From an uncultured Clostridia bacterium (GTDB taxonomy: Bacteria; Bacillota; Clostridia; Christensenellales; UBA1242), in NCBI GenBank assembly GCA_947589655.1, contig CANQCE010000002.1:1-32269 (forward strand): 32,269 bases of DNA, written 5' to 3'. Within the stretch, counting starts at the first letter, position 1. Each line of letters opens with the position of its first letter. The position numbers were made by a program, and so were the translations under genes. Of the stretch, positions 2,054 through 32,269 are shown one piece after another. The notes below the pieces were generated by a model. That model saw nothing but the letters and a program-made list of their open reading frames with translations. It ran no database searches and was not told the origin of the DNA.

Positions 2054-2137
2054 TTGTTTCTCCTTCGGTTTTATTTTGTTTCATATTCGACAAAATATTC
2101 CAATATTTGCGCACAAAAATTTTTTAACAATTTTTTT

Positions 2138-11232: not shown

Positions 11233-11261
11233 TTTACATCTTTTCCATAATGTGCTATAAT
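11233..11261 (+). promoter_or_regulatory. Near-consensus extended -10 promoter
   Basis: TTTACA (11233-11238), 17-nt spacer, TGcTATAAT (11253-11261). It lies inside the ORF-track extension 11250-11279. Confidence 0.6.
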
Positions 11262-11279
11262 GCCTACAAGGAGAAAAGT

Positions 11280-15189: not shown

Positions 15190-15284
15190 GGCACAAGGAT
15201 AACTCTTTTTAAGGTTAAAACGGCAGCAGATTAATGTCGAATTTTTTTTATTTTTAAATAATTTTATCAAAGGGGGGTGTGGCA

Positions 15285-16715: not shown

Positions 16716-16747
16716 AATAAAAAAATAAGCAAAAATTAAGAAATAAT

Positions 16748-16776
16748 TTGTCAATATATTTGGAAAAATATATTAA
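16748..16776 (+). promoter_or_regulatory. Candidate promoter for the GLUG surface-protein gene
   Basis: TTGTCA (16748-16753), 17-nt spacer, TATTAA (16771-16776). Confidence 0.4.
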
Positions 16777-16807
16777 AATTTGTTAAAATGTAAAAAAGAG
16801 GGTTAAT

Positions 16808-19147
16808 ATGAAGAAAATTCCATTTTTAATTTCGTTTATCTTCTGTTTGGCGGCTGCCTTTGGCGGCACAATCTTCTTTAACCCAAAAACAACTGCCGCG
16901 GCAGATGGAACTTTTAAACAAATATCAACTGCAAGCGATTTGCAAACGTATCTGTCTTCTTACACTTCCGAGAGCGCAGAACTTACAACCAACATTGACA
17001 TGGAGGGGGCCCAGTTAAGCCCAATTGGAACAGAAACCTCGCCATTTGAAAAAACTTTTGACGGCAAAGGCTTTAAAATTTCAAACTTTACCATTGATGC
17101 CCAGGAAGCAAACAGCCTTGGTTTATTTGGCGTGGCAAAAGGGGCGGTTATAAAAAATTTGGCGCTTGAAAATGTTGCAATAAATGTTGACGATGCCGTT
17201 ATTATTAGCGTTGGCGCTCTTGTTGGCAAGGCGGAAAACTGCACATTTGAAAACATTTCCATTTCAAGCACAGATGTTAAATTTAATTATGATTTTTCTT
17301 TAACAGGCAGCCAAGTAAACTTTGGTGTGCTTGCTGGAACGCTTGACAGTTGCAGCCTTACAAACATTATAAGCAGAGCAAACGCTTTGACCAACGGTTG
17401 GTCTTTGCCTGAAACTGACAACAAAAAAACATACAACTTTGGCGGAGTGGCTGGAAGGTTTTTAAATTCCAACTTTAAATTTGGTGTTGTGGAGGCAAAT
17501 TTTAACGCAGAACTTGCACAAGATTTTGACGGCACAGCAAATTTTGGTGGGGTGGCAGGAGAGGTTTCACAAGGCGAGAGCACACTTGTGAACTTGGCAA
17601 TGCAAAACACCTTTGCTTTAACCAACAATTCAACCGCAGCAAGCCTTCATGTTGGCGAAATTTGCGGAGAAATTAAAGCACCAGTTCCAACGCCGGGGAA
17701 TATTTCGTTTATTCATTATAAGAAAAATGACAATGTTGATGTTTTTGGCGAAAAGGCCAATTTTGCATATGAAAACCCATCTAACCAAGATTTTGTAACC
17801 GAAAGCATGTATGAACTGCATTACCTTGCACCAGATGGAAATTCTTATAACTATTTCAACAATCAATCTTGGCATCCACTTTATGGAATTTGGGATTTTA
17901 ACTCGGTTTGGTATGTTGCAGCATCCAATATTCAGTTGCAAAATTTCTCATCCGATTTTAATGTTAGCGTGGCAAATGTTGATACCAGAGTTATGGAACT
18001 TGCCAGCCTTCCTACAAAGTTTAACTATGGCGACAGGGTTGAAATAATTTTCAACTTTAAAACCAACGATGAAGGCACATCATTGAAGGAATTTTACGAA
18101 CTGACACAGATACGAAGAAACAATGCCAATGTTGCGGCAATAGTTCCAACTTCAAATGGCTACAAAGTTTCTGGCAGCGAGGCATATGATATTGAACAAA
18201 CAGAAAGCGGCTTTAAAATTATCATAAAAAGTTTGGACCGCTCAACAAGCGGCACTTACACTGTCATTGCCAAAGAAAAATACTTTAACGCCAAAGTGAC
18301 ATCTCGCCTTTATGTTGACGGCGAACTTCAATCAGAAATTCCTGCATATGTGTATCATGCGGATAACGGCAGTTTAGGAACACCTACCTCCGAAACTTTG
18401 CAGTGGTCCATGGCTTATGATATGGCTTATCGCATTGAAACAAGGGCAAAGTCCAACACTACAAATTCCACGGATGGCACGCTGTTTTGGTATATGGTTG
18501 GCCATGACGAGCAGGGCAGGGAAACCACAACTCAAATTCCTGCAGACTATATAAGCAATGGGGTGTTGCAGTTCACCTTTGGGCATGGAATTTTTACAGG
18601 CGACATTGAAATTTTTGCACGCTACACAGATGATTCTTGCAAGGTGACTTTCACCTTTAACGAGGGCGTTGCAAGGATTGTGGTTAGCCGAAGCATTACA
18701 GTGGATAAATCGGGAACGGTTGAACCAATTTCCAAAGATGAGACTGCATTGTGGTTAGAAATTTACATTTACAAAGAATACACTTTTGACTATCAACGTT
18801 TTGTGGACGAACTTGCATATAAATCGGAAGACCCAACGCGAGTTTTTTGCACTCCGCAAGAACAAAATGAAAGCGGCGATTTAAAATATTACAGTTTTCT
18901 TGTTGACATGACACTTCTGCAGCGCTCGGATTTTTCTGACGCCTTTCCTATTGAAGTTAAAACAAATTCAAACTTTAAAACCAATCGTGCTTGGATTTGG
19001 TGGCTTGTTGGTGGCATTTGTGGGGCAATTGTAATAACGCTTGTTGTTTTGCTTATCGTTTGGCTTGTCCGTAGAAATCGCTTTGGCGGTGACGGCGGCG
19101 GCAAAGTGAAAATTAAAAAGCAATCTTATAAAGACATGTATTATTAA
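16808..19147 (+). CDS. Large surface protein with GLUG-motif repeats, signal peptide and C-terminal TM anchor
   Basis: Signal peptide MKKIPFLISFIFCLAAAFGG...TAAADG. GLUG-type repeats SLGLFGVAKGAVIKNLALENV, VGALVGKAENCTFENI, NFGGVAGRFLNS and NFGGVAGEVSQG. C-terminal TM WIWWLVGGICGAIVITLVVLLIVWLV followed by RRNR. Confidence 0.75.
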   Translation: MKKIPFLISFIFCLAAAFGGTIFFNPKTTAAADGTFKQISTASDLQTYLSSYTSESAELTTNIDMEGAQLSPIGTETSPFEKTFDGKGFKISNFTIDAQEANSLGLFGVAKGAVIKNLALENVAINVDDAVIISVGALVGKAENCTFENISISSTDVKFNYDFSLTGSQVNFGVLAGTLDSCSLTNIISRANALTNGWSLPETDNKKTYNFGGVAGRFLNSNFKFGVVEANFNAELAQDFDGTANFGGVAGEVSQGESTLVNLAMQNTFALTNNSTAASLHVGEICGEIKAPVPTPGNISFIHYKKNDNVDVFGEKANFAYENPSNQDFVTESMYELHYLAPDGNSYNYFNNQSWHPLYGIWDFNSVWYVAASNIQLQNFSSDFNVSVANVDTRVMELASLPTKFNYGDRVEIIFNFKTNDEGTSLKEFYELTQIRRNNANVAAIVPTSNGYKVSGSEAYDIEQTESGFKIIIKSLDRSTSGTYTVIAKEKYFNAKVTSRLYVDGELQSEIPAYVYHADNGSLGTPTSETLQWSMAYDMAYRIETRAKSNTTNSTDGTLFWYMVGHDEQGRETTTQIPADYISNGVLQFTFGHGIFTGDIEIFARYTDDSCKVTFTFNEGVARIVVSRSITVDKSGTVEPISKDETALWLEIYIYKEYTFDYQRFVDELAYKSEDPTRVFCTPQEQNESGDLKYYSFLVDMTLLQRSDFSDAFPIEVKTNSNFKTNRAWIWWLVGGICGAIVITLVVLLIVWLVRRNRFGGDGGGKVKIKKQSYKDMYY

Positions 19148-19731
19148 TTTAATTTAGATAAATTTTTATATCTATTTGCAAGGGCGACACACTTTTGGTG
19201 TGCATCGTCCTTTTTTCTCGTTCCATCCATGCGTGAGTTTTTAAAATGCAGGCAAAAATGCCCAATAACGCCATTGCTTTGCACGCTATTGTATCCATGT
19301 GGATAAAGGCTTATGCTGGCAGGGATATAAGAATACTCATTAAGTTTCACAAGAACTGGGCGGCGCTGCCACGTAAAGTTAGAATTGCAAATTTCAGTTA
19401 TAAATTTAAAATCGGCATCCGAAATTGGCTCAATATCAAAATGATACAATCCGCCTGTGCGCACAGAGTTAAAATTTACGCCAGTTTGTATATCAAAAAC
19501 TTCAAATTGGCTGCCCACAGGCAAAATGGAATTCACACTTTTAAATTCCAGTGGCAACAATTGAACATTGTTGGCAGTTTTCGGTTGCAGTTCAATTTCG
19601 TGAAAATTATTTTGCTTATACACCACACTTTCTGGCACATTTGTGTAGTTTGAAAGCACAGGATATGGAAAAATTGCCGCAAAAATTGCACAAGACATTA
19701 AGAATGTGAAGATAAAAAAGATTTTTCGCAT
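19144..19731 (-). CDS. Hypothetical secreted protein or lipoprotein
   Basis: N-terminal hydrophobic leader MRKIFFIFTFLMSCAIF (possible lipobox LMSC). No clear SD. Its stop overlaps the stop of the GLUG gene by 4 nt (TTAA). Confidence 0.55.
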   Translation of the reverse strand: MRKIFFIFTFLMSCAIFAAIFPYPVLSNYTNVPESVVYKQNNFHEIELQPKTANNVQLLPLEFKSVNSILPVGSQFEVFDIQTGVNFNSVRTGGLYHFDIEPISDADFKFITEICNSNFTWQRRPVLVKLNEYSYIPASISLYPHGYNSVQSNGVIGHFCLHFKNSRMDGTRKKDDAHQKCVALANRYKNLSKLN

Positions 19732-19823
19732 GAAACTATTTTGTTTTATTAGTTCGTTTTAATTCAAGCCAAAACGCATTTTATTGATGTCATAAAAATT
19801 AGCGTTTTTAAATACTTTTTAAT

Positions 19824-20786
19824 ATGGCAAAAGTTTTTATGCTTGTTTTTTTGATTTTTGGCACGGTGGTGGGCTCGGGATTTTCCAGCGGCAAAGAGAT
19901 TATGGTGTTTTTCAGCCGCTTTGGCGCAATCTCTTATTTTTACATTGCTCTGGCAGGGCTGCTTTTCTTTGCGCTATTTTACTTTTTTCTTTCGCGCGGA
20001 AAAGCCATTTTGAAATGTCTGGAAAAATTTAAGTTCCTAAACATTTTTATCACCTTTAACAGCCTTATTTTTTGCGCATCTATGTTTGCAGGCTTAAAAA
20101 GTTTGTTCTCTTATTTTCCAACTTGGGCGGAGATTTTGCTGATTGCTTTTGTGCTTGTGCTATGTTTTGTTATCACTCTTAAAGGCATTGGGGGCTTGGA
20201 GAAAACAAATTTTTTTCTCATGCCACTTACAAGCGTGTTTTTTCTGGCGGTGCTTATTTTTGGCATGACGCAAAAAAGCGAATTTGTTTTTGAAACATCC
20301 ACTTGGGCAGGCTTTTTGTATAGCCCACTGTATGTTGCCTTGAACACTTGTATGAGCGGCATTGTGATTTGCAAGGTGGGTGACGGCCTAACAAAAAAAC
20401 AGACCTTTTTTGCAAGCCTGTTTTCATGTGCACTCCTTCTTGTTTTTCTTTTTTTAGGGAACTTTGTGCTTTTGTCCAGCGCCCAAATGTTGCACAGCGA
20501 AATGCCGTTTCTTTCCATTGCTTCGGCAAATCCTATATTTTTTTGCCTAGATTATTTTGTTATTTTGTCAGGTTGTTTTACAACATTAATTTCGCTTTGT
20601 TACACTCTTAAAATTTCTTTTGATAAACATATAGCAAAGCCCAAATTGTCCTGCCTTGCTGCCGTTTTAATTCCTTTTCTTTTAAGTGGAATTGGGTTTT
20701 CTGGGATTGTGTCTTTTCTTTATCCTATTTGCAGCGTTCTGGGCATATTTCTTCTTTGTTTTATGCTGTTTTACAGGGCAAATTAA
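19824..20786 (+). CDS. YkvI-family-like polytopic membrane protein (putative transporter)
   Basis: N-terminus FLIFGTVVGSGFSSGKEIMVFFSRFG matches the YkvI-type GAGFASGqEi..FF pattern as I recall it. About 9-10 TM helices. No SD. Confidence 0.6.
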   Translation: MAKVFMLVFLIFGTVVGSGFSSGKEIMVFFSRFGAISYFYIALAGLLFFALFYFFLSRGKAILKCLEKFKFLNIFITFNSLIFCASMFAGLKSLFSYFPTWAEILLIAFVLVLCFVITLKGIGGLEKTNFFLMPLTSVFFLAVLIFGMTQKSEFVFETSTWAGFLYSPLYVALNTCMSGIVICKVGDGLTKKQTFFASLFSCALLLVFLFLGNFVLLSSAQMLHSEMPFLSIASANPIFFCLDYFVILSGCFTTLISLCYTLKISFDKHIAKPKLSCLAAVLIPFLLSGIGFSGIVSFLYPICSVLGIFLLCFMLFYRAN

Positions 20787-21592
20787 CATTTGCTTTTAAC
20801 GCGTTTTTCAAGCAAACTTACAAGCGCATACATCACGAACGCAAGCAGGCAAAGTATGGTTGTGGCGGCCATTACAAGGTCAATTTTAAATATTTGTCCG
20901 CCATAGACAATCAAATAACCAAGTCCAGCCTTGCTGGTTAAATATTCTCCCATAATGCTGCCAACCCAACTCATGCCAACATTTATTTTAAGAACAGAAA
21001 CAAAGTCTGGCATGGCGTGCGGCAAAATTAATTTGGTGAAAATTTGGAATTTGCTGGCGTTCATAGAGCGTAAAAGCAGAATTTTTCCTTCCTCTACAGA
21101 TAAAAACGCTGAAAGCATGCTCATAACGGTTATAACAATGCAAATAAGCACACACATTGCCACAATGGCATTGGTTCCAGCACCTACCCACAAAATTATA
21201 ACAGGTCCAAGGGCGATTTTTGGCAGTGAGTTTAGCACCACAATATATGGTTCAAAAATTTTGCGAACTTTCTCGTTCCACCACAGCAGCACTGCTATTA
21301 TATATCCTGCCACAGTGGCTATTGCAAAGCCTATCAGTGTTTCGTATAAAGTTATCCAACTGTGTGTTAAAAGGGTGCCGTTTTTGGCAAGGGTTATTAT
21401 TTGCGAGACTATTCGTGATGGGCAACTAACAAAAAATGGGTCAATCACTTTTGTTTGTGCGAACAGTTCCCATAAACCAATAAAGGCAACAAGGATAAAA
21501 ATTCTGAAAAATATTATTAAAAACTTATTGCGTTTCAGCCTTTTTACATATTCTTTGTGCGCCTTGGTAAAATTAACTTGTTTTTTCTTCAT
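20783..21592 (-). CDS. ABC transporter permease (NitT/TauT/SsuC-type)
   Basis: BPD-transporter core SLPKIALGPVIILWVGAG, and ILPHAMPDFVSVLKINVGMSWVGSIMGEYL. ATG 21592 follows GGAGG and overlaps the end of the ATPase gene by 20 nt. Confidence 0.85.
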   Translation of the reverse strand: MKKKQVNFTKAHKEYVKRLKRNKFLIIFFRIFILVAFIGLWELFAQTKVIDPFFVSCPSRIVSQIITLAKNGTLLTHSWITLYETLIGFAIATVAGYIIAVLLWWNEKVRKIFEPYIVVLNSLPKIALGPVIILWVGAGTNAIVAMCVLICIVITVMSMLSAFLSVEEGKILLLRSMNASKFQIFTKLILPHAMPDFVSVLKINVGMSWVGSIMGEYLTSKAGLGYLIVYGGQIFKIDLVMAATTILCLLAFVMYALVSLLEKRVKSKC

Positions 21593-22343
21593 TTTTAAGT
21601 TGCCTCCATATATACTCAAAAAGTCCGTTAAAGCGTTCATCCTCTCGTTTTTTAAACGAAGTTTTGCCAACTAGCGAAGGCACAAGGGTGTCTTTCACTG
21701 TGGCAGGGCGACTGGACAGTATTATAATTTTGTCCGACATTGAAAGCGCCTCGGAGATATCGTGCGTTACAAGCATGGCGGTTTTTTTCTCGCTTTTGAT
21801 AATTTGATAAACATCATCACAAACGGACAGACGCGTTTGATAGTCAAGCGCAGAAAATGGCTCGTCAAGCAGCAAAAGTTTTGGCTCTAATGCCAGTGTG
21901 CGTATAAGGGCAACACGCTGGCGCATTCCGCCTGAAAGTGAACGCGGCTTTTGGTCTTTAAAGGCGTAAAGGTCGTATTTTTTTAAAAGTTCCTCTGCCA
22001 AAGCCAGTTTTTCTTCCATATTTTTTGGCTTTTGAATTTCCAACCCCAACTTAATATTTTTCCAAACAGTGCGCCACTCGAATAAAAAATCTTTTTGGAA
22101 CATATATCCAATCTTTTTTCGGTCTATTTGCTCATAACCATCCAAAAGAATTTTTCCAGAAGTTGGCTTTAAAAGCCCTGCGGTTAATGAAAGTATTGTG
22201 GTCTTTCCACATCCGCTGGGTCCAACAATTGATACAAAATGTTCCTTTTCAATGTCAAAACACACATCTTTAAGTGCAAAAATCTCGTCTGTTTTGGTCT
22301 GATAATAAAAATTAACATTGTCAAATTTTAAAATGTTCTCCAT
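21573..22343 (-). CDS. ABC transporter ATP-binding protein (nitrate/sulfonate/taurine-type)
   Basis: Walker A GPSGCGKTT, signature LSGGMRQRVALIRTL, Walker B LLLLDEPFSALD, H-loop VTHD. Confidence 0.9.
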   Translation of the reverse strand: MENILKFDNVNFYYQTKTDEIFALKDVCFDIEKEHFVSIVGPSGCGKTTILSLTAGLLKPTSGKILLDGYEQIDRKKIGYMFQKDFLFEWRTVWKNIKLGLEIQKPKNMEEKLALAEELLKKYDLYAFKDQKPRSLSGGMRQRVALIRTLALEPKLLLLDEPFSALDYQTRLSVCDDVYQIIKSEKKTAMLVTHDISEALSMSDKIIILSSRPATVKDTLVPSLVGKTSFKKREDERFNGLFEYIWRQLKNEEKTS

Positions 22344-22366
22344 AAGTTAAAGTCCTTTACAAATAC

Positions 22367-22395
22367 ATTTTATTTTGGGCGGAAATTTTTGTGAA
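22367..22395 (-). promoter_or_regulatory. Candidate promoter of the ABC operon
   Basis: On the minus strand: TTCACA (reverse complement of 22390-22395), 17-nt spacer, TAAAAT (reverse complement of 22367-22372). Confidence 0.4.
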
Positions 22396-22419
22396 AAGGA
22401 CATTTTTTGGCATATTTTG

Positions 22420-22448
22420 TTGAAAAACTGATTTTTGCGATGTATTAT
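22420..22448 (+). promoter_or_regulatory. Sigma-70-type promoter of the phage-derived operon
   Basis: TTGAAA (22420-22425), 17-nt spacer, TATTAT (22443-22448). GAGGGGG SD and ATG 22472 lie downstream. Confidence 0.5.
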
Positions 22449-22471
22449 GTTCGCAAAGTTGTGAGGGGGTT

Positions 22472-22750
22472 ATGGACGAAGACGAAATTTTGCAGATGCT
22501 TAAGAAAAAGGCTTTGGGCTTTGTTTCTGATGAGATTGTGGAGGAATATTGTCAGGACAAAAACGGAGAGCAAGTGCTTTGCAAGCGCAAGGTTACAAAA
22601 AAGGTCAATCCGCCCGATTTTTCCGCTTTAAAATTTTTGCTGGAACGTGGCGAACTTGATGATGACATTTCCAAAATGACAGATGAGCAACTTTTGCGTG
22701 AAAAAGAGCGGCTTTTACAACTTTTAAAAGAAAAGGAGAACAAAAAATGA
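22472..22750 (+). CDS. Putative phage terminase small subunit-like protein
   Basis: 92 aa. KKKALGFVSDEIVEEY...KKVNPPDFSALKFLLER plus a coiled-coil tail resembles small-terminase proteins of Firmicutes phages as I recall them. It sits at the first position of the packaging operon. Confidence 0.5.
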   Translation: MDEDEILQMLKKKALGFVSDEIVEEYCQDKNGEQVLCKRKVTKKVNPPDFSALKFLLERGELDDDISKMTDEQLLREKERLLQLLKEKENKK

Positions 22751-22962
22751 AAATGACAAAGTGCAGAAGTGACCTTAAATGTGATTTCTATGGCTGCAAA
22801 AACAATGCCAAATATGCTTTTAGCACAAAAGGCTTCATCCGCAAAGAACTGGTTTTTTGCGAGGATTGCATGAAAAGCATGTTCGAGTGTTTTTCCAAAA
22901 ACCTTGTGCCAAAGGGAGTGGAATCGGCATTTAAAGGCAAAAGAAAAAAGGAGAATTTATGA
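22747..22962 (+). CDS. Small Cys-rich (zinc-ribbon-like) protein
   Basis: 71 aa with seven Cys residues (C-x6-C-x4-C...C-x2-C-x6-C). ATG overlaps the upstream TGA, and its stop overlaps the portal ATG. Confidence 0.5.
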   Translation: MKMTKCRSDLKCDFYGCKNNAKYAFSTKGFIRKELVFCEDCMKSMFECFSKNLVPKGVESAFKGKRKKENL

Positions 22963-24866
22963 AAAAAGAAAAAGACATTGTAAAAGAAACCCTTCAAGAT
23001 TTTGAAAACAGAATTTTGCAGCGAAAACCATTTGAAAGCCAGTGGCTGTTAAACATGAATTTTTACATGGGGAATCAGTTTTGTGATATAGGCTATGGCG
23101 GGGCGGTTCGCGAACTTGACAAGCAATATTTTTGGCAGGAGAGAGAGGTTTTCAATCACATAGCACCAATAATTGACATCCGCATGGCAAAACTTTCAAA
23201 ACTTAAACCAAAAATGCATGTTGTGCCAGCAACAGATGATGCGCAAGATGTTTACACGGCAAAGGTTGGCAAAAAAATTCTGCAGGCAACATCCAACAAG
23301 GTGAACCTTATAGCCAAATGCAATCAAGCAACCAAATGGAGTGAAATTTGTGGGACAAGTTTCTTTAAGGTGACATGGAACTCTAACCTTGGGCAAGTGG
23401 TTGCCATTGAAGACGATGGAAGAAAAATAAAAACTGGCGATATTGAGGTTTCTGTTTGCTCACCATTTGAAATTTATCCAGATTCCGCCACGCATGAAAC
23501 TTTGGAGGATTGCCAAAGTTTAATTCATGCAAGGGCATATACCTCCGAGCAGGTTAAGCAAATGTTTGGCGTGGAAGTGGAAGGCAAAGATGTCAATGTG
23601 TTTTCGCTTGACGGAATAAGCAGCTCTTTGGGTGGACTTGGTTATTCTGGACTTGCCACAAGGGTTATTGAAACCATTAAGCACGATAGCGTTATTGTGC
23701 TTGAAAAATATGTTAAGCCAAACGCTGATTACCCTAATGGGCGGCTGATAATCATTGCTGGCGACAAATTGGTTTACGAGGGCGATATGCCTTACATAAA
23801 TGGCGTTGACGGCAAGCGTGAATTTCCTTTTGTGCGTCAAATTTGCAGCGAAGAAGTTGGCAATTTTTGGGGAGTTTCTATGATTTCTCGCCTTATTCCA
23901 GTGCAGCGAGCGTTTAACGCGGTCAAAAACCGAAAACACGAATATATAAATCGTTTGACGATGGGTGTTTTGGCAGTTGAAGATGGCAGCGTTGATATGG
24001 ACAATCTGGAAGAAGAAGGCTTGGCACCGGGGAAGATTTTGGTTTACAGACAGGGGGCAAACCCTCCAAAGTTCTTGGGCGGAGAAAGTGTTCCTACCGA
24101 TTTTGAAAAGGAAGAACAAGAACTTTTGGACGAGTTCTCCAAACTTGGCGGAACCAGCGAGATAGGCACAATGGAGGCGATGTCGCAATCAATTTTTGGT
24201 GTTGCTCTTGAACTTTTGATAGATGAAAACGAAAGCAGGCTCATTTTTACAACCGACAGCATGAAATCCGCCATAAAAACAGTGGCAAAGCATATTTTAA
24301 GGCTTTACAAACAATTTGCAACCTTTCCAAGGCTGTTGAAGGTTGTGGGCGAGAATGGCGATTTTGAAGTGCTTTATTTCCAGAGCAGCGATATTTCAAG
24401 CGATGATGTGCAATTTGATACCGACAACGAAAATAACAACACTTTGTCTCAGCGCCGCGAAATGATTTTTTCGCTTTTGGATAAAGGGCTTTTGCAGGAC
24501 GAAAATGGGAAAATAACGGCATCAATGAAGAACAAAATTCTGCAAAATATTGGCTTTGGCGTCGGCATATTCCGCCATGTCTTTGTGATAATCGAGATGG
24601 TTGGGGGAGAGATTGGTTTTGGCGTTTGGGATAGCAGTGTTGATTTAAGCGAACTTCAAACCAAAAATGCGGACATGGAAAATGTTAGGATGGCAGAGGG
24701 CAAAGATGTGCCAGTTAAAGAGATTGACCAACACGCTTTGCATATAACTCAGCATACTGCATATATGCTTAAAAACATTTATAGCAAAGAAAATGTGAAC
24801 GGCAAAGTTGAACAGAAGTTTTTAGAGCATATAAAGGCGCATAAAGCCGCATTGAAAGAAGAATAA
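22959..24866 (+). CDS. Phage portal protein
   Basis: AAGGAGA SD. N-terminal W.LNMNFYMGNQF portal signature, 635 aa, positioned directly before scaffold and capsid. C-terminal DQHALHITQHTAYM block. Confidence 0.85.
   Translation: MKKEKDIVKETLQDFENRILQRKPFESQWLLNMNFYMGNQFCDIGYGGAVRELDKQYFWQEREVFNHIAPIIDIRMAKLSKLKPKMHVVPATDDAQDVYTAKVGKKILQATSNKVNLIAKCNQATKWSEICGTSFFKVTWNSNLGQVVAIEDDGRKIKTGDIEVSVCSPFEIYPDSATHETLEDCQSLIHARAYTSEQVKQMFGVEVEGKDVNVFSLDGISSSLGGLGYSGLATRVIETIKHDSVIVLEKYVKPNADYPNGRLIIIAGDKLVYEGDMPYINGVDGKREFPFVRQICSEEVGNFWGVSMISRLIPVQRAFNAVKNRKHEYINRLTMGVLAVEDGSVDMDNLEEEGLAPGKILVYRQGANPPKFLGGESVPTDFEKEEQELLDEFSKLGGTSEIGTMEAMSQSIFGVALELLIDENESRLIFTTDSMKSAIKTVAKHILRLYKQFATFPRLLKVVGENGDFEVLYFQSSDISSDDVQFDTDNENNNTLSQRREMIFSLLDKGLLQDENGKITASMKNKILQNIGFGVGIFRHVFVIIEMVGGEIGFGVWDSSVDLSELQTKNADMENVRMAEGKDVPVKEIDQHALHITQHTAYMLKNIYSKENVNGKVEQKFLEHIKAHKAALKEE
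24549..24625 (+). repeat. 14-bp direct repeats (13/14 identical) flanking a 49-nt spacer; a 63-bp in-frame insertion in the portal gene
   Basis: ATTGGCTTTGGCGT at 24549-24562 and ATTGGTTTTGGCGT at 24612-24625. The protein reads NIGFGV-GIFRHVFVIIEMVGGE-IGFGVW. Confidence 0.85.
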
Positions 24867-24877
24867 AGGAGAATTTT

Positions 24878-25492
24878 ATGGAAGAAGAAATAAAAAACGA
24901 GGAACAACCGAACATTGAACCTTCTGTGGAAGAAAATGTTACAGGCTCCTCAAGTGAACAAGCCGAAGTTGCTGACAAGGGAGAAGTTAAAGCAGAAAGG
25001 GGCGTTCCCATTGGTAAATTTAAAAACGCAGAGGAACTTCTTAAAGCCTATAACAACTTGGAGGCCGAGTTCACAAAGAAAAGTCAAAAATTATCCAGTT
25101 TAATGAAAGACAAAATGGAAGAAAAGCCAGATGATGCTTTTAAAACATTCCTTTCAAAAAACCAAGAGGCGGCATGTTATGCTGAAGAACTGCAAAACCG
25201 AATTGGCGAACAAGATAATGTTGACGAGGCGGCTTATCAGCGTGCTTGGGAGGGGCTTTTATACGAAAAACTGACCTCTAATAACAGAGCAAGCGAGCCG
25301 TTTGTTAAAAACTTAGTTAAAGATGACTCTATTCAGCAGATGGTCATCAAAGATTACTTGAAAGCACTTGCAGCCAAACAGGCGCCAGTGGTTATGGCAT
25401 CGCAAAACGGAGAACATATCACAAAAAACGTTCAAGAAAAGCCAGACACCTTTGATGCGGCTAAAAAAGTGGTTATGCAAATGCTTTCTTAA
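24878..25492 (+). CDS. Phage capsid scaffolding protein
   Basis: Acidic N-terminus, then GKFKNAEELLKAYNNLEAEFTKKSQKL, which is typical of Firmicutes phage scaffold proteins. Helical. Located between portal and capsid. Confidence 0.75.
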   Translation: MEEEIKNEEQPNIEPSVEENVTGSSSEQAEVADKGEVKAERGVPIGKFKNAEELLKAYNNLEAEFTKKSQKLSSLMKDKMEEKPDDAFKTFLSKNQEAACYAEELQNRIGEQDNVDEAAYQRAWEGLLYEKLTSNNRASEPFVKNLVKDDSIQQMVIKDYLKALAAKQAPVVMASQNGEHITKNVQEKPDTFDAAKKVVMQMLS

Positions 25493-25512
25493 AAACAAAA
25501 AGGAGAAAAAAC

Positions 25513-26673
25513 ATGATAACTTTATCAAGTGCAGAAAATGTGCTTAAAGATGTTTATTTGGGTGTTATTGCAGACCAAATAAACACAAAAACAAATCCTC
25601 TTTTTGCCAGAATTAGAAAAAGCACAAGAAACATTGTTGGCAAAGAGGTAAGAGTTGTTGCACCTATTGGCATCAACGGCGGAATTATGGCAGGAACAGA
25701 AGACGACACACTCCCAGAAGGGGTTGATACACCATATCTTTCTTTTGTTGCACCACTTAAAAACCTTTATGGAAAATTTGAAATTAGCGACAAAGCCATA
25801 CGTTGCTCGTCAACAGATGTAAACTCTTTTGTAAATCTTTTGCAAGATGGCATGGACAGCCTGCTTAAAGCAAGCATATTTAACCTTTCCAGAATGCTTT
25901 ATGGCGATGGCACAGGCCTGCTTGGAACAATCAAAGAATTCACTTTGCCAACGGCAACTGTTAGCAATGTGGAAAGTTTTGCCCCAGGCATGTATGTTGA
26001 TATTTACACAGGTGAAAGCCTTACTGAAGCAAAAGTGTATGTAAAAGCAGTGGACAAAGCCGCAAAGAAAGTTACTTTTGGCTCTGGGACAACCTTTACC
26101 GCTGACGATAAAATTTATGTTCACAAATCTAAGAACAACGAAATTGTTGGCTTGAAAGGGATTGTTTCAAACACATCTTTGTATGGCGTTAAAAGAGCAG
26201 ACTATCCTGTAATCAATGCAAAAACTTACACTGCTTCCGATGAGGCCTTTGATGAAAACTTTGTTCAAAAGATTATTGATGAACTTGAAATGAACGGAAC
26301 GGCAGTTAACTTTATCAACTGCTCTTACGAACTTAAAAGATTGTATCAACAATACATGACATACTATAACAAAAACATTGAATTTACAACATTAGAAGAT
26401 GGAACAAGGGTTATCACACACCTTGGGACACCAATTGTCCCAACCAACCATGTTGATGCAGGCGAGTGCTATTTCCTGAACACTGACGACTTTGTATTCT
26501 ATGAACTTGGTGATTGGAAATGGCTTGAAGACGAACAAGGCAGAATTTTAAAACAATTTGCTGATAAGCCAGCTTACTCTGCAACACTTGTTAAATATAC
26601 GGAACTTGTTTGCCATAAGCCATCTGGTGTTGGTTTTGTTAGCAATTTAAAAACAACTATGCCAGAGGTATAA
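25513..26673 (+). CDS. Phage major capsid protein (HK97-fold type presumed)
   Basis: AAAGGAGA SD, 386 aa, positioned after the scaffold gene. N-terminal LKDVYLGVIADQINTKTNPLFARI is capsid-like. Confidence 0.8.
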   Translation: MITLSSAENVLKDVYLGVIADQINTKTNPLFARIRKSTRNIVGKEVRVVAPIGINGGIMAGTEDDTLPEGVDTPYLSFVAPLKNLYGKFEISDKAIRCSSTDVNSFVNLLQDGMDSLLKASIFNLSRMLYGDGTGLLGTIKEFTLPTATVSNVESFAPGMYVDIYTGESLTEAKVYVKAVDKAAKKVTFGSGTTFTADDKIYVHKSKNNEIVGLKGIVSNTSLYGVKRADYPVINAKTYTASDEAFDENFVQKIIDELEMNGTAVNFINCSYELKRLYQQYMTYYNKNIEFTTLEDGTRVITHLGTPIVPTNHVDAGECYFLNTDDFVFYELGDWKWLEDEQGRILKQFADKPAYSATLVKYTELVCHKPSGVGFVSNLKTTMPEV

Positions 26674-26676
26674 AAA

Positions 26677-26994
26677 ATGAAAAAGTCATTTGAAATTGAA
26701 AGCGATTGCTTGGACATTGTAAAGCGGCTTAAAAGCATTGATAAAGATTATTTTGTGGTGTATAACTTACAAAAGCAGGCTTTTGAACTGCACAGCCACG
26801 CACAAAGAATAACTTATTGCCTTACTTTTCCGTATGAAACTTTGGACGAGCGTGCAATTGTTTTAACTTTAAAAACGCGTGTTCAAAACAGCGATGCTTT
26901 GTTCGCCGAAATGGAAGCGGACAATGAAAGGCTACGCCAAGCAAAAATTGCCCAAGTTTTTAATGACTTTAAGGAGAAACTTTATGACAGTTAA
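26677..26994 (+). CDS. Hypothetical phage-module protein (105 aa)
   Basis: Tightly coupled ORF following the capsid gene. Confidence 0.5.
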   Translation: MKKSFEIESDCLDIVKRLKSIDKDYFVVYNLQKQAFELHSHAQRITYCLTFPYETLDERAIVLTLKTRVQNSDALFAEMEADNERLRQAKIAQVFNDFKEKLYDS

Positions 26995-27541
26995 AGACAT
27001 TATAAAATTGGTTTGTGATTTTGTGGGAGAGGGTGACATTGCGCAAAAGTTGACCTTAAAGCAGGCGCTTTCCGCCGCTGAGCGGAGGAAGGTGGAACAG
27101 ATGACAAACTGCTTTAACCTTGTAAATCAGGAGATTGCAAGTGACTATTTGCCGCTTTTAAAGAAAGAAACTTTAAAGGAAGAAACTTCCATGATTAATT
27201 TTGCCGATTTAACCGAAACTGTTGTGCATATTTTGGAGATAAAAAACCGCTTTGGAATTAGCCTGAAATTCAGGCTTTTTCCAAATTATGCGGAAATTTC
27301 TGGCCGTGCCAAAACGGTTGTTTACAGTTTTCTGCCAAAAGAGCTTACGCAGGAGAGCGAAATTGAAATGCTCTGCGGATTAAGCCCAAGAATTTATGCA
27401 TATGGCGTTGCCAGTGAATACCTTTTAATTGACGGCTTAACCGATGACGCAGAAATTTGGGAAGAAAGGTTTAAAGAAAGTTTGTTTATGCTTTCAAGAA
27501 AGTCTGGCGAGCACCGCTTGCCACGCAGGAAATGGCTATGA
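26984..27541 (+). CDS. Putative head-completion/adaptor protein (185 aa)
   Basis: ATG 26984 follows AAGGAGA (26971-26977) and overlaps the upstream gene by 11 nt. Size and position match adaptor proteins in P22/T7-like gene order. The function is inferred from position only. Confidence 0.5.
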   Translation: MTVKDIIKLVCDFVGEGDIAQKLTLKQALSAAERRKVEQMTNCFNLVNQEIASDYLPLLKKETLKEETSMINFADLTETVVHILEIKNRFGISLKFRLFPNYAEISGRAKTVVYSFLPKELTQESEIEMLCGLSPRIYAYGVASEYLLIDGLTDDAEIWEERFKESLFMLSRKSGEHRLPRRKWL

Positions 27542-29031
27542 TTTTTTATAAGAACACCAAAAAATTTAAGCCAATTTCTAAAAAAGACCTTGTTTTTTCC
27601 ATTTTTAATCAGGGGATAGTTTCTGGAGAAGATGATTCTGTTACAAAACCTACACAATGCAAATGTTACTTCAATCTTTCTGTTGCAGACGGTGCTTTAA
27701 AAAATGGTTTGGGCTTTGAGGACTTTCAAGTTCCAGCATCTTTGGACAACCTTGAAAACTGTCATGGATACGATTTTGCTTCAAAAATTGATGAAATTGA
27801 TGCCATTTGGTTTGACAGGTGGTTCAGCGTGGAGGATGGGCAGTATTATTATCAGATGATGCTGATGGATTCTGCTTTTAAAATTTTTAGCGTGCCACTT
27901 TTGGACCAATATAATGGCATGGTTTGGAGTAGGAGTAGCAAGGTGCAAAGTAAGCCGTTGTTTGTTTGCCAATATCGCATTGAAAATGACGACTGCACAT
28001 TGTTTTTTACCAAAGAAGGCATGATAAGGCTGGGCACTGAAAGTGAGGGCTTTTATGATAAAGTTCCGCCATTGATTTCTTGTGTTGTGCACTACGACAA
28101 CTTTTTTGGAGTGACAAACACAAACCGAAACACACTTATTTATACAAAAAATCTTAATTTAAAAAACTGGTCGGACGAGGAGAGTTCCACTATTGAATTT
28201 TTGGATAACCGTGGGGCTTTTACAAAACTTGTTGCGTTCAACGATTATGTATATTTATTCAGAGAAAATGGGATAACAAGAATTTCTCTTTATACTAACA
28301 AAAGCGATTTTTCTTTCACTCATCTGTTCACTTCGCCGTCAAAAATCTATGAAAATTCCATTTGCGTTTGTGGCGACAAGGTGCTTTTTGTTACCAGAGA
28401 TGGACTTTATGCGTTTAACGGAAATTCCGTGGCAAAAGTGGCGGAAAATTTAAACTCACTTTTGCAAAATTTGGACAACACAAATTGTTCGGCGGCGTGC
28501 CTTGATGGAAAATATTATTTGGCGACCAAATGCAACTTTTCAGACGGCAGGCAAGTTGGCTGTGAGGAAGGCGAGTTTTTAAATAACGTTTTATTTCAAT
28601 TTGATATTAACACCTTTGATGCCGAAATTTTAAGAGGTGTGGATATTGTTAACGTTTTGGCAATTGATACGCCATATTTAAGCAAACTTTGCGCATGCTT
28701 CCGTGGGGAAAACAAACAACGCGTTGGGCAACTTGTGCACAATGGAAAGGTTTTTGAAAATTCCAATTTAAAAATTTGGAGTTCGTTCAAAACCGATTTG
28801 GAATATGCCAATAGACGCAAAAAAATTAAGGAGATAATCTTGACAACGGCGCATGATGTTTCTGTGGAAATTATCAGTGACGAGGAAGAAAAAACCTATC
28901 AGTTCAAAGGCAGTGAAAAACAGCAAAGATTGCCTATTTCTGTTGAAGGAAAAACCTTTCAATTTATCTTTAAAACCGATGCAGAGGGCATTGACCTTAA
29001 AAAGCCAACAATCATTTTTAATGTGGCGTAA
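27532..29031 (+). CDS. Putative tail-hub/nozzle-like structural protein (499 aa)
   Basis: ATG overlaps the upstream stop. Beta-rich, repeat-like blocks (FFGVTNTNRNTLIYT, YVYLFRENGITRISL, KVLFVTRDGLYAFNG, GKYYLATK). Position is equivalent to P22 gp10. The function is inferred. Confidence 0.45.
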   Translation: MAMIFYKNTKKFKPISKKDLVFSIFNQGIVSGEDDSVTKPTQCKCYFNLSVADGALKNGLGFEDFQVPASLDNLENCHGYDFASKIDEIDAIWFDRWFSVEDGQYYYQMMLMDSAFKIFSVPLLDQYNGMVWSRSSKVQSKPLFVCQYRIENDDCTLFFTKEGMIRLGTESEGFYDKVPPLISCVVHYDNFFGVTNTNRNTLIYTKNLNLKNWSDEESSTIEFLDNRGAFTKLVAFNDYVYLFRENGITRISLYTNKSDFSFTHLFTSPSKIYENSICVCGDKVLFVTRDGLYAFNGNSVAKVAENLNSLLQNLDNTNCSAACLDGKYYLATKCNFSDGRQVGCEEGEFLNNVLFQFDINTFDAEILRGVDIVNVLAIDTPYLSKLCACFRGENKQRVGQLVHNGKVFENSNLKIWSSFKTDLEYANRRKKIKEIILTTAHDVSVEIISDEEEKTYQFKGSEKQQRLPISVEGKTFQFIFKTDAEGIDLKKPTIIFNVA

Positions 29032-29138
29032 ATGAAAGTTTTATTTTTTGATAAAACAAAATTTTTTCGCAAGGCGCATTTTTATAAAAGCGGAGATTTT
29101 TCTGCCATTAGAGCTCTGCTTTTTGAAGGGGAATAAAA

Positions 29139-29369
29139 ATGGATTTTTGGAAAGAGGTTATAAGCATAGTTGTCAGCAATGGTGTGTTTGCTGTGCTTTT
29201 TGTTTTACTATTTTTCTATCAACTGAAAGACAGCCGAAACCGAGAGGAAAAATATCAGCAAACCATAGAGCAACTTACAACTCATCTGCAGATTTTGGAA
29301 GATGTAAAGGAAGATTTAACAGATATAAAGGAAATTTTAAAAATTAACAGCGATGAAAAATTTTTTTAA
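29139..29369 (+). CDS. BhlA/UviB-family holin-like peptide
   Basis: GVFAVLFVLLFFYQLKDSRNREEKYQQTIEQL parallels B. subtilis BhlA GPFAVLFCWLLFYVMKTSKERESKLYNQI as I recall it. Single N-terminal TM plus a coiled coil. GAAGGGG SD. Confidence 0.8.
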   Translation: MDFWKEVISIVVSNGVFAVLFVLLFFYQLKDSRNREEKYQQTIEQLTTHLQILEDVKEDLTDIKEILKINSDEKFF

Positions 29370-29592
29370 CAAATTTAAAACTTACAGTTTTTGGGTGAGT
29401 TTGTCTTCTGCTGTTGTGCTGCTTATAAACAGTATTGGCAGAATTTTTGGGTTTACAATTGAAAACCAACTTGTTGAAGATTTAATCCTTTCTTTTGCAG
29501 GAGTTTTGCTGGTTCTGGGCATTGTGACAATGAACAGCGGCAACAAAGACGATGGCGAAGATGACAATGATGACGAAGGTCAGGATGAATAA
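29353..29592 (+). CDS. Putative two-TM holin (SPP1/XhlB-like) with an acidic tail
   Basis: 79 aa, TM helices FWVSLSSAVVLLINSIG and LILSFAGVLLVLGIVTM. Overlaps the bhlA-like gene by 17 nt. C-terminus is DDGEDDNDDEGQDE. Confidence 0.55.
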   Translation: MKNFFNKFKTYSFWVSLSSAVVLLINSIGRIFGFTIENQLVEDLILSFAGVLLVLGIVTMNSGNKDDGEDDNDDEGQDE

Positions 29593-29630
29593 AAATAAGA
29601 TAAAATGTATAAACATGCATAGAAAAAATA

Positions 29631-29666
29631 AAAGGACCGCAGAGAATTTTCTGCGGTCTTTTTTTA
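29631..29666 (+). terminator. Rho-independent terminator closing the phage-derived operon
   Basis: GACCGCAG (29635-29642) pairs with CTGCGGTC (29651-29658), followed by a T7 run. Confidence 0.75.
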
Positions 29667-30162: not shown

Positions 30163-32269
30163 GTGGATAAGTTTGTTATAATTGATGGAAATAGTTTGGC
30201 GAATAGGGCATTTTACGCAATGCCCTATTTATCTAATAGAAACAAGCAGCCTTCTGGGGCTGTTTTCGGCTTTGCCAATCTGCTTGTAAAGCTAATTGTT
30301 GAACAACATCCCAAGTTTTTGGCAGTTGCCTTTGACCATGCACGTAGAACCTTTCGTAACGATGTTTTTGATGCTTACAAGGCAAAAAGAAAGGAAACTC
30401 CGCCAGATTTGGTGGCACAATTTCCTGTTATAAAGCAGATGCTTGAAATTATGGGCATAAAAACATTTGAGGTTGAGGGGATTGAGGCAGACGATATCAT
30501 TGGAACGCTGGCAAAAACGTCTGGGGTTCAAAATGTTTTGGTGTCTGGCGATAGGGACTTGCTGCAACTTATAGACAAAAACACCACGGTTTGGCTGACA
30601 AAAAAAGGTGTTACAGATGTTGAAAAATATGATGAGGAAGCCTTGTATGAAAAATTGGGCTTAAAGCCGTGGGGGATTATTGAACTGAAAAGCCTTATGG
30701 GCGATGCTTCCGATAATATCCCCGGAGTTCTGGGCGTTGGAGAAAAAACTGCGCTTACACTTTTGCACGAATATGATTCGCTTGACGGAGTTTATCAGAA
30801 TATAGGCCAAATTGGTGGCAAACTGAAAGAGAAACTTGAAAGCGGCAAAGATAGTGCGTATATGTCCAAAACATTGGCGACAATTAAAACTGATTGTCAG
30901 TTTGAACATGAGCTTTCAAGTTGCACATATACGTTCCCATTTACGCAAAATGTGAGAGACTTTTTTGAGCAGTGGGATTTTAGAAGTTTGGTTGGCAGAA
31001 AAGATATTTTTGATGTGGGCGTGCGCTCTACAAAAGAAGAAGTTAAAAGAATCTGCCTTGAAAATTTGCAGCAAATTGAGGACTTTGCCAAAAAAGTTTC
31101 ACATTATTTCAGTTATGATGTTGATAAGCTTGAATTTTCTATAAATGGCAGCGAAATTTATTATATAAAAAGGGAACAAGACTTTTTTTCAACGCCGATA
31201 TCCTTGCCGCAAGTTCTAGAAATTTTAAAGCCAATTTTTGAGAATCCGCAAGTTTTAAAACTGACAAATTCATCTAAAAATGACACAAAAATTTTAAAAG
31301 CGCAGGGCATTACGCTAAATAACTTTTTTGACGTTGAAATTGCCAGATATGTTCTGTATGCAGGCCTCCCTAAACTGCCGTTTGCAAATGTAAGCGATTT
31401 TATCTCTTTAAAAGCGGATTTAGAGCAAAAAATGAAAGATGCTGGCGTGGAGAACATTTATAATCAAGTGGAAATTCCTCTGGTTAAAGTGCTGGCAGAC
31501 ATGGAAATGCAGGGGTTTAAAATTGACGAGCCAGTTTTAGATGTTTTGGCGGAAAAAGAGCGGCAGGAACTTGAACAGTTGACGAAAGAAATATATGCCC
31601 TTGCAGGCGAGGAATTTAACATTAACTCTCCAAAGCAGGTGGCAAGCATTTTGTTTGATAAACTTGGTCTAAAAGCCTTTAACAACAAAAAACAATCCAC
31701 CAATTTTGCTGTGCTTGACGATATTCGCTGGCAGCATGATATTGTTGAACTTATCATTTCGCATAGGAAAGTTAGCAAAATGATAAGCACATATATAAAT
31801 GTTTATAAGAAAATTTGCGAAACTTCTGGCCCAGTTGTGCACACAATTTTCAACCAAACACTCACTTCAACGGGCAGGCTTTCAAGTAGCGAGCCAAATA
31901 TGCAAAACATTCCAACTCGTGACGAAGAAGGCAGGGCACTGCGAAAGATTTTTATTTCAAAATTCGAGGGCGGAAAAATTATATCTGCCGACTATAATCA
32001 AATTGAGCTGCGTCTGCTTGCCAACTTGGCAAATGAAGAAAGCATGCTGCACGCTTATAAAAATGGGGTGGACATCCACACAAAAACAGCCAGCGAAATT
32101 TTTGGCGTGCCAGTTCAGGAGGTTACCAAAGAGCAGAGGCGAGATGCTAAAGCCGTAAATTTTGGAATTATTTATGGCATAAGCGATTTTGGATTGTCGC
32201 AAAACATAAAAACATCTAAATATAAAGCGAAAACTTATATAGAAAATTATTTTTCGCGTTATCCGCGCA
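30163..32269 (+). CDS. polA: DNA polymerase I (3' end outside the window)
   Basis: Not in the ORF track because no stop falls in the window. My own translation from GTG 30163 (alternative GTG 30154) is open to the window edge. 5'-nuclease motifs FVIIDGNSLANRAFYA and EADDIIGTLAK. Polymerase motifs TSTGRLSSSEPNMQNIP, ISADYNQIELRLLA and RRDAKAVNFGIIYGIS. The central 3'-5' exo region is short and lacks an obvious DxE motif. Confidence 0.92.
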   Translation, partial: MDKFVIIDGNSLANRAFYAMPYLSNRNKQPSGAVFGFANLLVKLIVEQHPKFLAVAFDHARRTFRNDVFDAYKAKRKETPPDLVAQFPVIKQMLEIMGIKTFEVEGIEADDIIGTLAKTSGVQNVLVSGDRDLLQLIDKNTTVWLTKKGVTDVEKYDEEALYEKLGLKPWGIIELKSLMGDASDNIPGVLGVGEKTALTLLHEYDSLDGVYQNIGQIGGKLKEKLESGKDSAYMSKTLATIKTDCQFEHELSSCTYTFPFTQNVRDFFEQWDFRSLVGRKDIFDVGVRSTKEEVKRICLENLQQIEDFAKKVSHYFSYDVDKLEFSINGSEIYYIKREQDFFSTPISLPQVLEILKPIFENPQVLKLTNSSKNDTKILKAQGITLNNFFDVEIARYVLYAGLPKLPFANVSDFISLKADLEQKMKDAGVENIYNQVEIPLVKVLADMEMQGFKIDEPVLDVLAEKERQELEQLTKEIYALAGEEFNINSPKQVASILFDKLGLKAFNNKKQSTNFAVLDDIRWQHDIVELIISHRKVSKMISTYINVYKKICETSGPVVHTIFNQTLTSTGRLSSSEPNMQNIPTRDEEGRALRKIFISKFEGGKIISADYNQIELRLLANLANEESMLHAYKNGVDIHTKTASEIFGVPVQEVTKEQRRDAKAVNFGIIYGISDFGLSQNIKTSKYKAKTYIENYFSRYPR

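Follow-up and report, generated by a model that had tools for sequence, protein, structure and literature searches.

A stretch of 32,269 nucleotides from an uncultured Clostridia bacterium of the order Christensenellales, family UBA1242 (GenBank assembly GCA_947589655.1, contig CANQCE010000002.1, positions 1 to 32,269; hereafter the window), carries phage-derived head, packaging, tail and lysis genes that probably form a chromosomally fixed, anciently domesticated particle system of podovirus origin, a 'viriform' resembling a gene transfer agent (GTA) and inherited vertically throughout the Christensenellales. The element spans 15.7 kb (13886-29592; Table 1) and consists of a ten-gene operon and, upstream of it, genes for the terminase large subunit (TerL), a sigma-like regulator and a membrane protein. 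GTA-like particles are a likelier product of this locus than a dying prophage because its genes are fixed order-wide and conserved like a core gene. The element is apparently undescribed as a GTA-like domesticated phage particle; full-text literature searches (for FpGTA, the GTA of Faecalibacterium prausnitzii, and for gene transfer agents in Christensenellales or Clostridia) returned no description of it.

A first-pass annotation of the window had described a tail-less block of ten genes with one promoter and one terminator, bordered by polA and an ATP-binding cassette (ABC) importer, and had offered three explanations: a domesticated, GTA-like DNA-packaging particle, a capsid-forming island borrowing helper tails and, as the null, a decaying podophage. 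The block, its promoter-like site and its terminator are real and the borders were correctly placed. The limits drawn were too narrow, with TerL, the sigma-like regulator and the membrane protein overlooked 6-8 kb upstream, and the operon does not lack tail genes, as described below.

Conservation and inheritance of the module

Relatives of the capsid protein number in the thousands in metagenome-assembled genomes (MAGs) of uncultured Clostridia, many of them on contigs of hundreds of kilobases, and their identity declines gradually from 76% to about 54% before stepping to a large group at 48-50%. An exact look-up of the capsid protein sequence in public assemblies gave no record. With one genome taken per species, at least 546 of 599 candidate stretches encode a capsid relative. 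For synteny and gene statistics, 80 loci from 80 different assemblies were kept and divided by capsid identity into a near group (65-77%) and a far group (47-50%); one named relative among them, Candidatus Caccovivens, corresponds to GTDB genus UBA11517 of family UBA1242. In both groups, and in all 80 loci as far as each contig reaches, a membrane protein gene (mem320) is followed by minus-strand ABC permease and ABC ATPase genes and then by the ten genes. Near-group loci have TerL, the surface protein and a 195-aa gene in common as well, on the upstream side; on the downstream side they share the 115-aa gene, polA, ruvX, rluD and pheST. Fixed location, which had been proposed as a sign of domestication, is thus borne out by gene order and neighbours that are identical in 80/80 loci.

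Selection was assessed by Nei-Gojobori dN/dS in 15 close species pairs. The ten genes are full-length in nearly all loci, with median dN/dS of 0.04-0.10 for eight of them, 0.21 for the gene in the scaffold position and 0.24 for the holin, compared with 0.04 for the flanking ABC genes and 0.18 for a neighbouring membrane protein. When 33 near-group species were compared with the window, the median identities were 68.8% (PolA), 69.5% (portal), 72.3% (capsid protein) and 72.4% (Cys-rich protein). In pairwise comparisons, the identity values of the element's proteins rise and fall with those of the ABC ATPase encoded next to them (Pearson 0.73-0.89). The element is single copy in each genome. Intact frames, strong purifying selection and divergence equal to that of polA favour the domesticated, GTA-like option.

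These data bear directly on the null of a defective podophage remnant decaying in place. Such a remnant would account for the lack of integrase, replication, fibre and endolysin genes and for the interruption of the module by cell genes. However, decay should bring patchy presence, frameshifts and relaxed selection, and what is found is one position and order in every locus, intact frames throughout the dN/dS range given above, divergence matching that of polA and a promoter kept over deep lineages. We therefore reject the null and give decay in place almost no credence.

Head and packaging proteins

The portal is, by its profile matches, of P22/SU10 type, and the capsid protein, on the same kind of evidence, is an HK97-fold protein of podovirus/SU10 type whose homologues carry PF17236. 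Family matches likewise back the first-pass calls of the BhlA-like peptide and the holin. The resemblance to deposited phages is distant: among 50,697 of them the best capsid match is 27.5% identical, and TerL matches reach at most 29%. Single-sequence searches of the PDB gave no matches for the portal, the sigma-like protein or the 195-aa protein. In the window, the portal contains an in-frame hydrophobic insertion of 21 aa (about IGFGVGIFRHVFVIIEMVGGE, approximately 24549-24611) that is absent from 11/11 relatives aligned and flanked by the near-repeat ATTGG(C/T)TTTGGCGT; an insertion peculiar to this strain or an error of assembly could explain it.

No other protein of the set is as conserved as TerL, for which near relatives show 80-84% identity; its Walker A (GGNRSGKT), Walker B (VWFDEEP) and acidic nuclease residues are invariant in the alignment. 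The 92-aa protein, called a small terminase subunit (TerS)-like protein in the first-pass annotation, is a putative TerS by a weak match to phrog_309 (E 0.014), which covers profile positions 200-243 of 319 only. Its alignment shows a motif, KKALGY..DE.VEEY....G..VL.KRK.TKK..PPD.SA.K.LLE, and a C-terminal coiled coil; no helix-turn-helix was found in it, and tblastn of the protein against deposited phages gave no match. Its gene stands immediately 3' of TerL wherever the module is contiguous. The 71-aa Cys-rich protein has four cysteines (C12, C17, C38 and C41) that are invariant in 24 sequences; its gene was undetected by tblastn in many lineages and is not called in Borkfalkia.

The scaffold call for the 204-aa protein stands on gene position, and the protein had no family match in Pfam, PHROGs or NCBIfam. 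It is encoded by the fastest-evolving structural gene of the element (26-56% identity). Two loci, L065 and L072, carry near-group versions of all genes except scaffold and capsid, which lie in the far-group range relative to the window (capsid 48%, scaffold 29-35%); this pair may have been replaced by recombination. The 105-aa protein, matched by nothing in Pfam, PHROGs or a profile search of PDB sequences, may serve in head completion or decoration; its gene is not called in Borkfalkia.

Tail core and lysis proteins

The operon encodes a short podovirus tail core, as judged from the nozzle fold of the 499-aa protein and the adaptor matches of the 185-aa protein encoded before it. An AlphaFold2 (AF2) model of the 499-aa protein, built on an alignment of 64 sequences, reached a predicted local distance difference test score (pLDDT) of 91.4 and a predicted TM-score (pTM) of 0.90. 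The first-pass annotation had proposed a Foldseek comparison of each product; it was run on this one, against the PDB, and the top 27 matches were all chains of podophage tail complexes. Pa223 (E 2.6e-20, TM-score 0.72/0.71) and VP1 ranked highest, and further matches included GP4, SU10, the T7 gp12 nozzle, and tail chains of P22, PhiM1 and crAss001. Profile search of PDB sequences gave only a marginal SU10 match (E 0.076). By its modelled fold and its gene position after the probable adaptor, the 499-aa protein is a tail nozzle of the T7 gp12/P22 gp10 type, a class marked by a beta-propeller plus barrel fold.

The 185-aa protein is probably the head-to-tail adaptor. Its alignment to PF24175 is full-length, at 17 bits against a gathering cutoff of 27; the same family was matched independently by 5/28 homologues (best E 0.0013), and the gene stands between the head genes and the nozzle gene. 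Profile search of PDB sequences gave no match for this protein, and a single-sequence AF2 model (pLDDT 34) was discarded.

No gene for an integrase, for replication or for a tape measure, tube, sheath or endolysin came up in Pfam and PHROGs scans of the window's main open reading frames (ORFs), and a repeat search found no att-like direct repeats flanking the block, in agreement with the first-pass annotation. A mobile satellite, such as an island of the capsid-forming phage-inducible chromosomal island (cf-PICI) kind taking helper tails, or a temperate podophage with its other modules outside the window, would likewise present head and packaging genes without fibres or lysin, and IMG/VR classes short contigs bearing relatives as viral. 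However, those IMG/VR contigs have the same cell-type regulator, the same membrane gene and no phage genes of other modules; genes for integrase, replication or a repressor and att repeats were found neither in the window nor in the long-contig relatives; the element itself encodes a nozzle and a probable adaptor; and its fixed neighbours, single copy and co-divergence with host genes are not those of a mobile element. We consider a mobile island or temperate phage very improbable, and the helper-tail option of the first-pass annotation is set aside because the element has no integrase or att sites and is immobile.

Table 1. Features of the podovirus-derived element in the window (TM, transmembrane; RBS, ribosome binding site).
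Feature	Position	Strand	Evidence
175-aa sigma-70 region-4-like protein	13886-14413	+	phrog_248 (transcriptional activator) 1.9e-6; phrog_36 2e-6; TIGR02985 2e-4
Membrane protein, 291-aa ORF	14410-15285	-	probable ATG start 15189
Terminase large subunit (TerL), 478 aa	15279-16715	+	Terminase_6N 5.6e-16; phrog_2 1.3e-28
779-aa surface protein	16808-19147	+	signal peptide, C-terminal TM anchor
Operon promoter region	22404-22471	+	TTTTTGGCA 22404-22412; -35 TTGAAA 22420-22425; -10 TATTAT 22443-22448; leader CGCAAAGTTGTG 22452-22463; RBS
92-aa putative small terminase	22472-22750	+	phrog_309, E 0.014; dN/dS 0.05
71-aa zinc-ribbon-like protein	22747-22962	+	four Cys; dN/dS 0.04
Portal, 635 aa	22959-24866	+	PF16510 P22_portal 2.9e-20, 72.7 bits vs cutoff 26.1; phrog_156 3e-35
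204-aa acidic protein, probable scaffold	24878-25492	+	position between portal and capsid genes; dN/dS 0.21
Major capsid protein, 386 aa	25513-26673	+	NF033394 capsid_maj_Podo 8e-60, 202 bits vs cutoff 80; phrog_14242 7e-46
105-aa conserved protein	26677-26994	+	79/80 loci; dN/dS 0.08
185-aa probable head-to-tail adaptor	26984-27541	+	PF24175 SU10_adaptor E 0.008; dN/dS 0.10
499-aa podovirus tail nozzle (tail hub)	27532-29031	+	AF2 model and Foldseek
76-aa BhlA-family holin-like peptide, 1 TM	29139-29369	+	PF10960 2.1e-17; phrog_2429 3.7e-16; dN/dS 0.05
79-aa two-TM holin	29353-29592	+	PF04531 9.6e-5, 23.3 bits vs cutoff 22; phrog_297 1e-7
Intrinsic terminator closing operon	29630-29663	+	15-pair stem, then T run

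Operon organization, promoter and the upstream unit

According to the ORF listing, the ten genes of the operon lie on one strand and most overlap or are separated by gaps of at most 20 nt, the sole wider gap being one of 107 nt 5' of the BhlA gene. They are preceded by a promoter-like site (TTGAAA-17-TATTAT, 22420-22448). A layout of TTTTTGGCA, N7, TTGAA, N17, TAaAAT and a GGCAAAAGTTGCAAA leader precedes the 92-aa gene in 38 species of the near group and 34 of the far group. Upstream of the operon lie the minus-strand permease and ATPase genes of the ABC importer; downstream are a 115-aa membrane protein and then polA, which begins at 30163 and extends past the end of the window.

TerL is separated from the head operon by 5.7 kb of cell genes, namely those for the surface protein, membrane proteins and the ABC importer. 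The importer was considered as a member of the system and rejected, as related families have TerL beside the 92-aa gene with no transporter. The 175-aa sigma-like protein, which resembles region 4 of sigma-70 or a late activator of phages, is a candidate dedicated activator of the particle genes. By tblastn its gene lies two genes 5' of TerL in related loci of lower GC content, and high-GC loci have an ORF of similar size in that position. Divergent from TerL and just 5' of it, in most related loci (29 to 64% GC), is the gene of the membrane protein, which has a signal peptide, an extracellular domain, a C-terminal TM segment and a Lys-rich tail and was matched by no family in Pfam, PHROGs or NCBIfam.

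The 779-aa protein encoded after TerL is a possible associate of the system. Its sequence is that of a surface-anchored protein and not of PolA. In several lineages TerL is followed by the gene of a weak homologue (23-39%), in some of them between TerL and the head genes, and the gene may be part of the system, for example as a receptor or immunity factor. A promoter for the surface protein, TTTGGAAAAATA ... TGnTAAAAT, is found in the window spacer (16747-16807) and kept in lineages whose TerL is 62-84% identical; it was seen in the TerL-surface protein spacers of L010, L019, L120, L121, L123, L128 and L131.

A TTTTGTC/TTTTGAC motif often occurs 0-45 nt 5' of the TerL start in loci L117-L196, and the window spacer (15190-15284) has AATGTCGAA at about 15233-15241. 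This motif is loosely like the TTTTTGGCA of the operon promoter, and an operator common to TerL and the operon is possible on this likeness. The pattern TTTGDCA-N7-TTGA was tried as the common operator and rejected, as the window contains 9 matches where 8.4 are expected by chance. An operator motif at chance level and a loose motif shared by the regions 5' of TerL do not establish a common regulon.

Dispersal of the module among cell genes

Other lineages carry the module in one piece. A capsid-alignment scan of IMG/VR and a TerL-alignment scan of metagenomes found loci with the order sigma-like gene, membrane gene (minus strand), TerL, 92-aa gene, (Cys-rich), portal, scaffold, capsid, (105-aa), adaptor and nozzle, on contigs of up to 325 kb and from 29% to 64% GC, with TerL 59-68% identical to that of the window. 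With the capsid of a high-GC relative as query, 6277 clusters were matched, and the named matches include Candidatus Borkfalkia species; in Candidatus Borkfalkia excrementavium a compact module of about 11 kb, with no integrase or lysin in it, lies between sugar-metabolism genes. Because distant lineages keep the module genes adjacent, the ancestral state was a contiguous cassette. Stages of its splitting can be seen in a surface-protein gene after TerL (some lineages), in the 5.7 kb of cell genes of the window, and in lineages with no head genes within 10 kb of TerL.

The surroundings may have moved as well. In L158, L159, L174 and L184 (53-54% GC), genes for an S-adenosylmethionine (SAM) methyltransferase and a pseudouridine synthase lie 3' of the module, and in far-group loci L039, L042, L050 and L080 they lie 5' of the block of membrane-protein gene, ABC genes and operon (59-65% and 48-53% identity). 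The presence of this pair on either side, depending on lineage, suggests that the chromosomal neighbourhood is itself of long standing and was reshuffled around the element.

Other features of the window

Small ORFs at 30661-32158 were considered as genes and rejected as spurious frames within polA, and Rfam and tRNA scans of the window gave no matches. Far upstream are two genes (2054-3586 and 3639-4295) that seem to have no connection with the element. The first encodes a protein of 510 aa containing an adenylate/guanylate cyclase domain, the second a BspA-type leucine-rich-repeat protein that strongly matches phrog_35892 (2e-27), a PHROG without assigned function. A 417-aa ORF (11250-12503) includes four tandem 21-nt repeats (11324-11407) that encode the heptapeptides GAIVLPN, GMIALPN, GSLVLQN and GVIILPT near the N-terminus of the protein, for which tblastn found no match in near-group loci L117-L121.

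Comparison with known systems

Among GTAs the closest counterpart is FpGTA, a ten-gene podovirus-type operon of Faecalibacterium prausnitzii that produces particles of about 40 nm containing 8.4-8.9 kb of random host DNA, and that is complemented by a second operon for fibres, receptor-binding protein, holin and endolysin (Borodovich et al., 2026, Nat Commun 17:2046, PMC12946183). Both systems belong to gut Clostridia and have about ten genes in an operon of podovirus type, with TerS-like, TerL, portal, scaffold-position, capsid and nozzle genes; both lack integrase and replication genes, are conserved clade-wide and have further functions at separate loci. FpGTA particles have no visible tail. 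The FpGTA capsid (RCH50849.1) is annotated as N4-gp56, whereas that of the element belongs to NF033394/PF17236 and has no N4-gp56 match at E up to 0.1. The FpGTA order is TerS, TerL, portal, Prp-like, capsid, whereas the element has membrane gene (minus strand), TerL, 92-aa gene, (Cys-rich), portal, scaffold, capsid, with no Prp-like gene before the capsid. No counterpart of the second FpGTA operon was found here, and FpGTA has been shown experimentally, whereas the element is known from its genes. The named matches of the high-GC relative's capsid were Borkfalkia and Clostridia MAGs, never Faecalibacterium, and when 1.84 billion representatives were searched with TerL, identity fell off smoothly over the range 52-33%, under uninformative cluster names. 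The element appears not to be orthologous to FpGTA, from which annotation and gene order, as opposed to direct alignment, set it apart.

RcGTA, with its siphovirus-like long tail, head spikes and fibres, is regulated by CtrA and quorum sensing, carries about 4 kb of cargo and relies on competence proteins for uptake. Alphaproteobacterial GTAs of this type resemble the element in their ancient domestication, order-level vertical inheritance, purifying selection and distribution of genes over several loci, as well as in a dedicated activator of sigma-region-4-like kind (GafA in RcGTA, as a candidate the 175-aa protein in the element) and a TerS, putative in the element, that lacks a DNA-binding domain; the gene order of RcGTA is not homologous to that of the element. 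In far-group locus L039 a ComEC gene (18720-20795) lies about 5 kb downstream of the holin, after genes for 672- and 731-aa proteins. Given the uptake of RcGTA through competence proteins, far-group genomes may have a DNA-import route, and the proximity of ComEC to the module may also be coincidental.

The podophages SU10, Pa223, VP1, GP4, T7 and P22 share with the element the nozzle fold (closest in Pa223), a portal of P22/SU10 type, a capsid of SU10 type and the weak SU10 adaptor match. Unlike the element they are autonomous, with fibres or tailspikes, needle or ejection proteins, replication and lysis genes, and identity to them is only 10-28%. Another comparison is with cf-PICIs, which are mobile, have an integrase and att sites, are induced by helpers, encode no tail and are patchily distributed. 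The element resembles them in its chromosomal head and packaging genes without tail fibres, but it occupies a fixed location, has no integrase and encodes its own nozzle.

The defective prophage PBSX of Bacillus subtilis is, like the element, phage-derived and chromosomally fixed in a Firmicute; its particle is released by holin-dependent lysis, and its late operon is under a sigma-like factor. It differs in being myovirus-like with a contractile tail, in killing without transfer, in its restriction to few Bacillus species and in having its own endolysin. PBSX packages 13.4 kb of random host DNA (Borodovich et al., 2026).

Gene transfer or another use for the particle

Phage-derived structural and packaging genes (TerL, portal, capsid, nozzle) lie in the chromosome; no replication, integration or lysogeny module and no att repeats accompany them in the window or in long-contig relatives; and inheritance is vertical over the clade, in single copy and under purifying selection. 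These are three of the marks by which a GTA is recognized, and we regard a GTA-like system as the probable reading. Further marks would be particles that package random host DNA in pieces too small to hold the whole element (15.7 kb here), for which the virome record given below is indirect support, and the delivery of such DNA to recipient cells.

Several points count against it. The system is known here from genes alone, and particles, packaging and transfer are inferred; purifying selection indicates that the genes are useful and says nothing on their use; and the exclusion of self-packaging hinges on capsid size. The assignment of the 92-aa protein as TerS is weak, given the E-value of its profile match and the lack of a phage match. 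TerL was not located in far-group genomes, and indirect evidence suggests a distance of more than 10 kb from their head genes. The window and the flanks of close relatives yielded no receptor-binding protein, fibre, needle or plug, ejection protein or endolysin, and some other Christensenellales lineages do have a tail-protein gene directly after the nozzle. These lineages carry one to three extra genes 3' of the nozzle, the first of which shares an N-terminal [DN]YGKxAYLK motif in six loci, with variable C-termini; one member scanned, of 805 aa, falls in a PHROG 'tail protein' family (1.6e-30). No homologues of the extra genes were found in the available regions of the window lineage.

This difference between lineages is one argument for a domesticated particle with no role in gene transfer, serving PBSX-like killing or defence, a programmed lysis by which DNA or public goods are set free, or as a decoy, with packaging kept only for capsid maturation. 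The same conservation data fit such a role, for which PBSX of Bacillus subtilis is a known precedent (mentioned in Borodovich et al., 2026), and the two lysis-type membrane proteins are tightly conserved, the BhlA peptide strongly so (Table 1) and with a PHROGs label of bacteriocin production or immunity. A PBSX-like role would become more likely if fibre and lysin genes proved absent from the genome. However, it is not obvious how a stubby nozzle without fibres or contractile sheath would kill, conservation within the set is highest for TerL, and viromes show GTA-type packaging of Christensenellales DNA. We consider a role without transfer unlikely, albeit one to be taken seriously.

GTA-type packaging has been recorded in viromes for HGM11616 (peaks at 4.1 and 7.1 kb) and QANA01 (6.3 kb), which were assigned to the Christensenellaceae, with the genes not identified (Borodovich et al., 2026). 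The module described here would be an obvious candidate for the genes behind this packaging.

Proposed mechanism

Under the GTA-like reading, the sigma-like protein would switch on the TerL unit and the operon promoter (22404-22448) in a subpopulation of cells. Procapsids would be assembled from portal, scaffold and capsid protein, and filled by headful packaging through TerL, aided by the TerS-like 92-aa protein. Because the 92-aa protein has no DNA-binding domain, and hence would confer no pac specificity, the cargo is proposed to be host DNA, with no dedicated genome. The portal would then be sealed by adaptor and nozzle, giving a stubby, fibre-less, podovirus-like particle; BhlA and holin would permeabilize the membrane, with release by a host autolysin or an unlinked lysin. 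Factors for adsorption and uptake, such as fibres and competence genes, would be encoded elsewhere or be absent.

A broader history can be put forward, more tentatively, as a possibility that falls short of our firm endorsement. A podovirus would have been domesticated before UBA1242, Borkfalkiaceae and their relatives split, and maintained as a particle for DNA packaging under host regulation, with its genes dispersing step by step among core genes and its fibre gene disappearing from the locus in the lineage of the window. The result would be an ancient, order-wide GTA of the Christensenellales, the genetic basis of GTA-type packaging of Christensenellales DNA in human gut viromes and a Gram-positive counterpart of RcGTA, independent of FpGTA.

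Implications for the Christensenellales

The Christensenellales, mostly uncultured, rank among the gut taxa with the highest heritability and the strongest association with health. If they do produce such particles, this would account for bacterial DNA in virome fractions. Few GTA families are well supported, almost all of them from Alphaproteobacteria, and FpGTA is the sole one described in a gut commensal (Borodovich et al., 2026). The element offers defined targets for virome proteomics and genetics in TerL, portal, capsid, nozzle, the sigma-like regulator and the conserved promoter. What distinguishes it is conservation across an order combined with stepwise dispersal among core genes: a domesticated virus dismantled into the host chromosome, contiguous in some families and split elsewhere by one gene, by 5.7 kb as here, or apparently by more than 10 kb.

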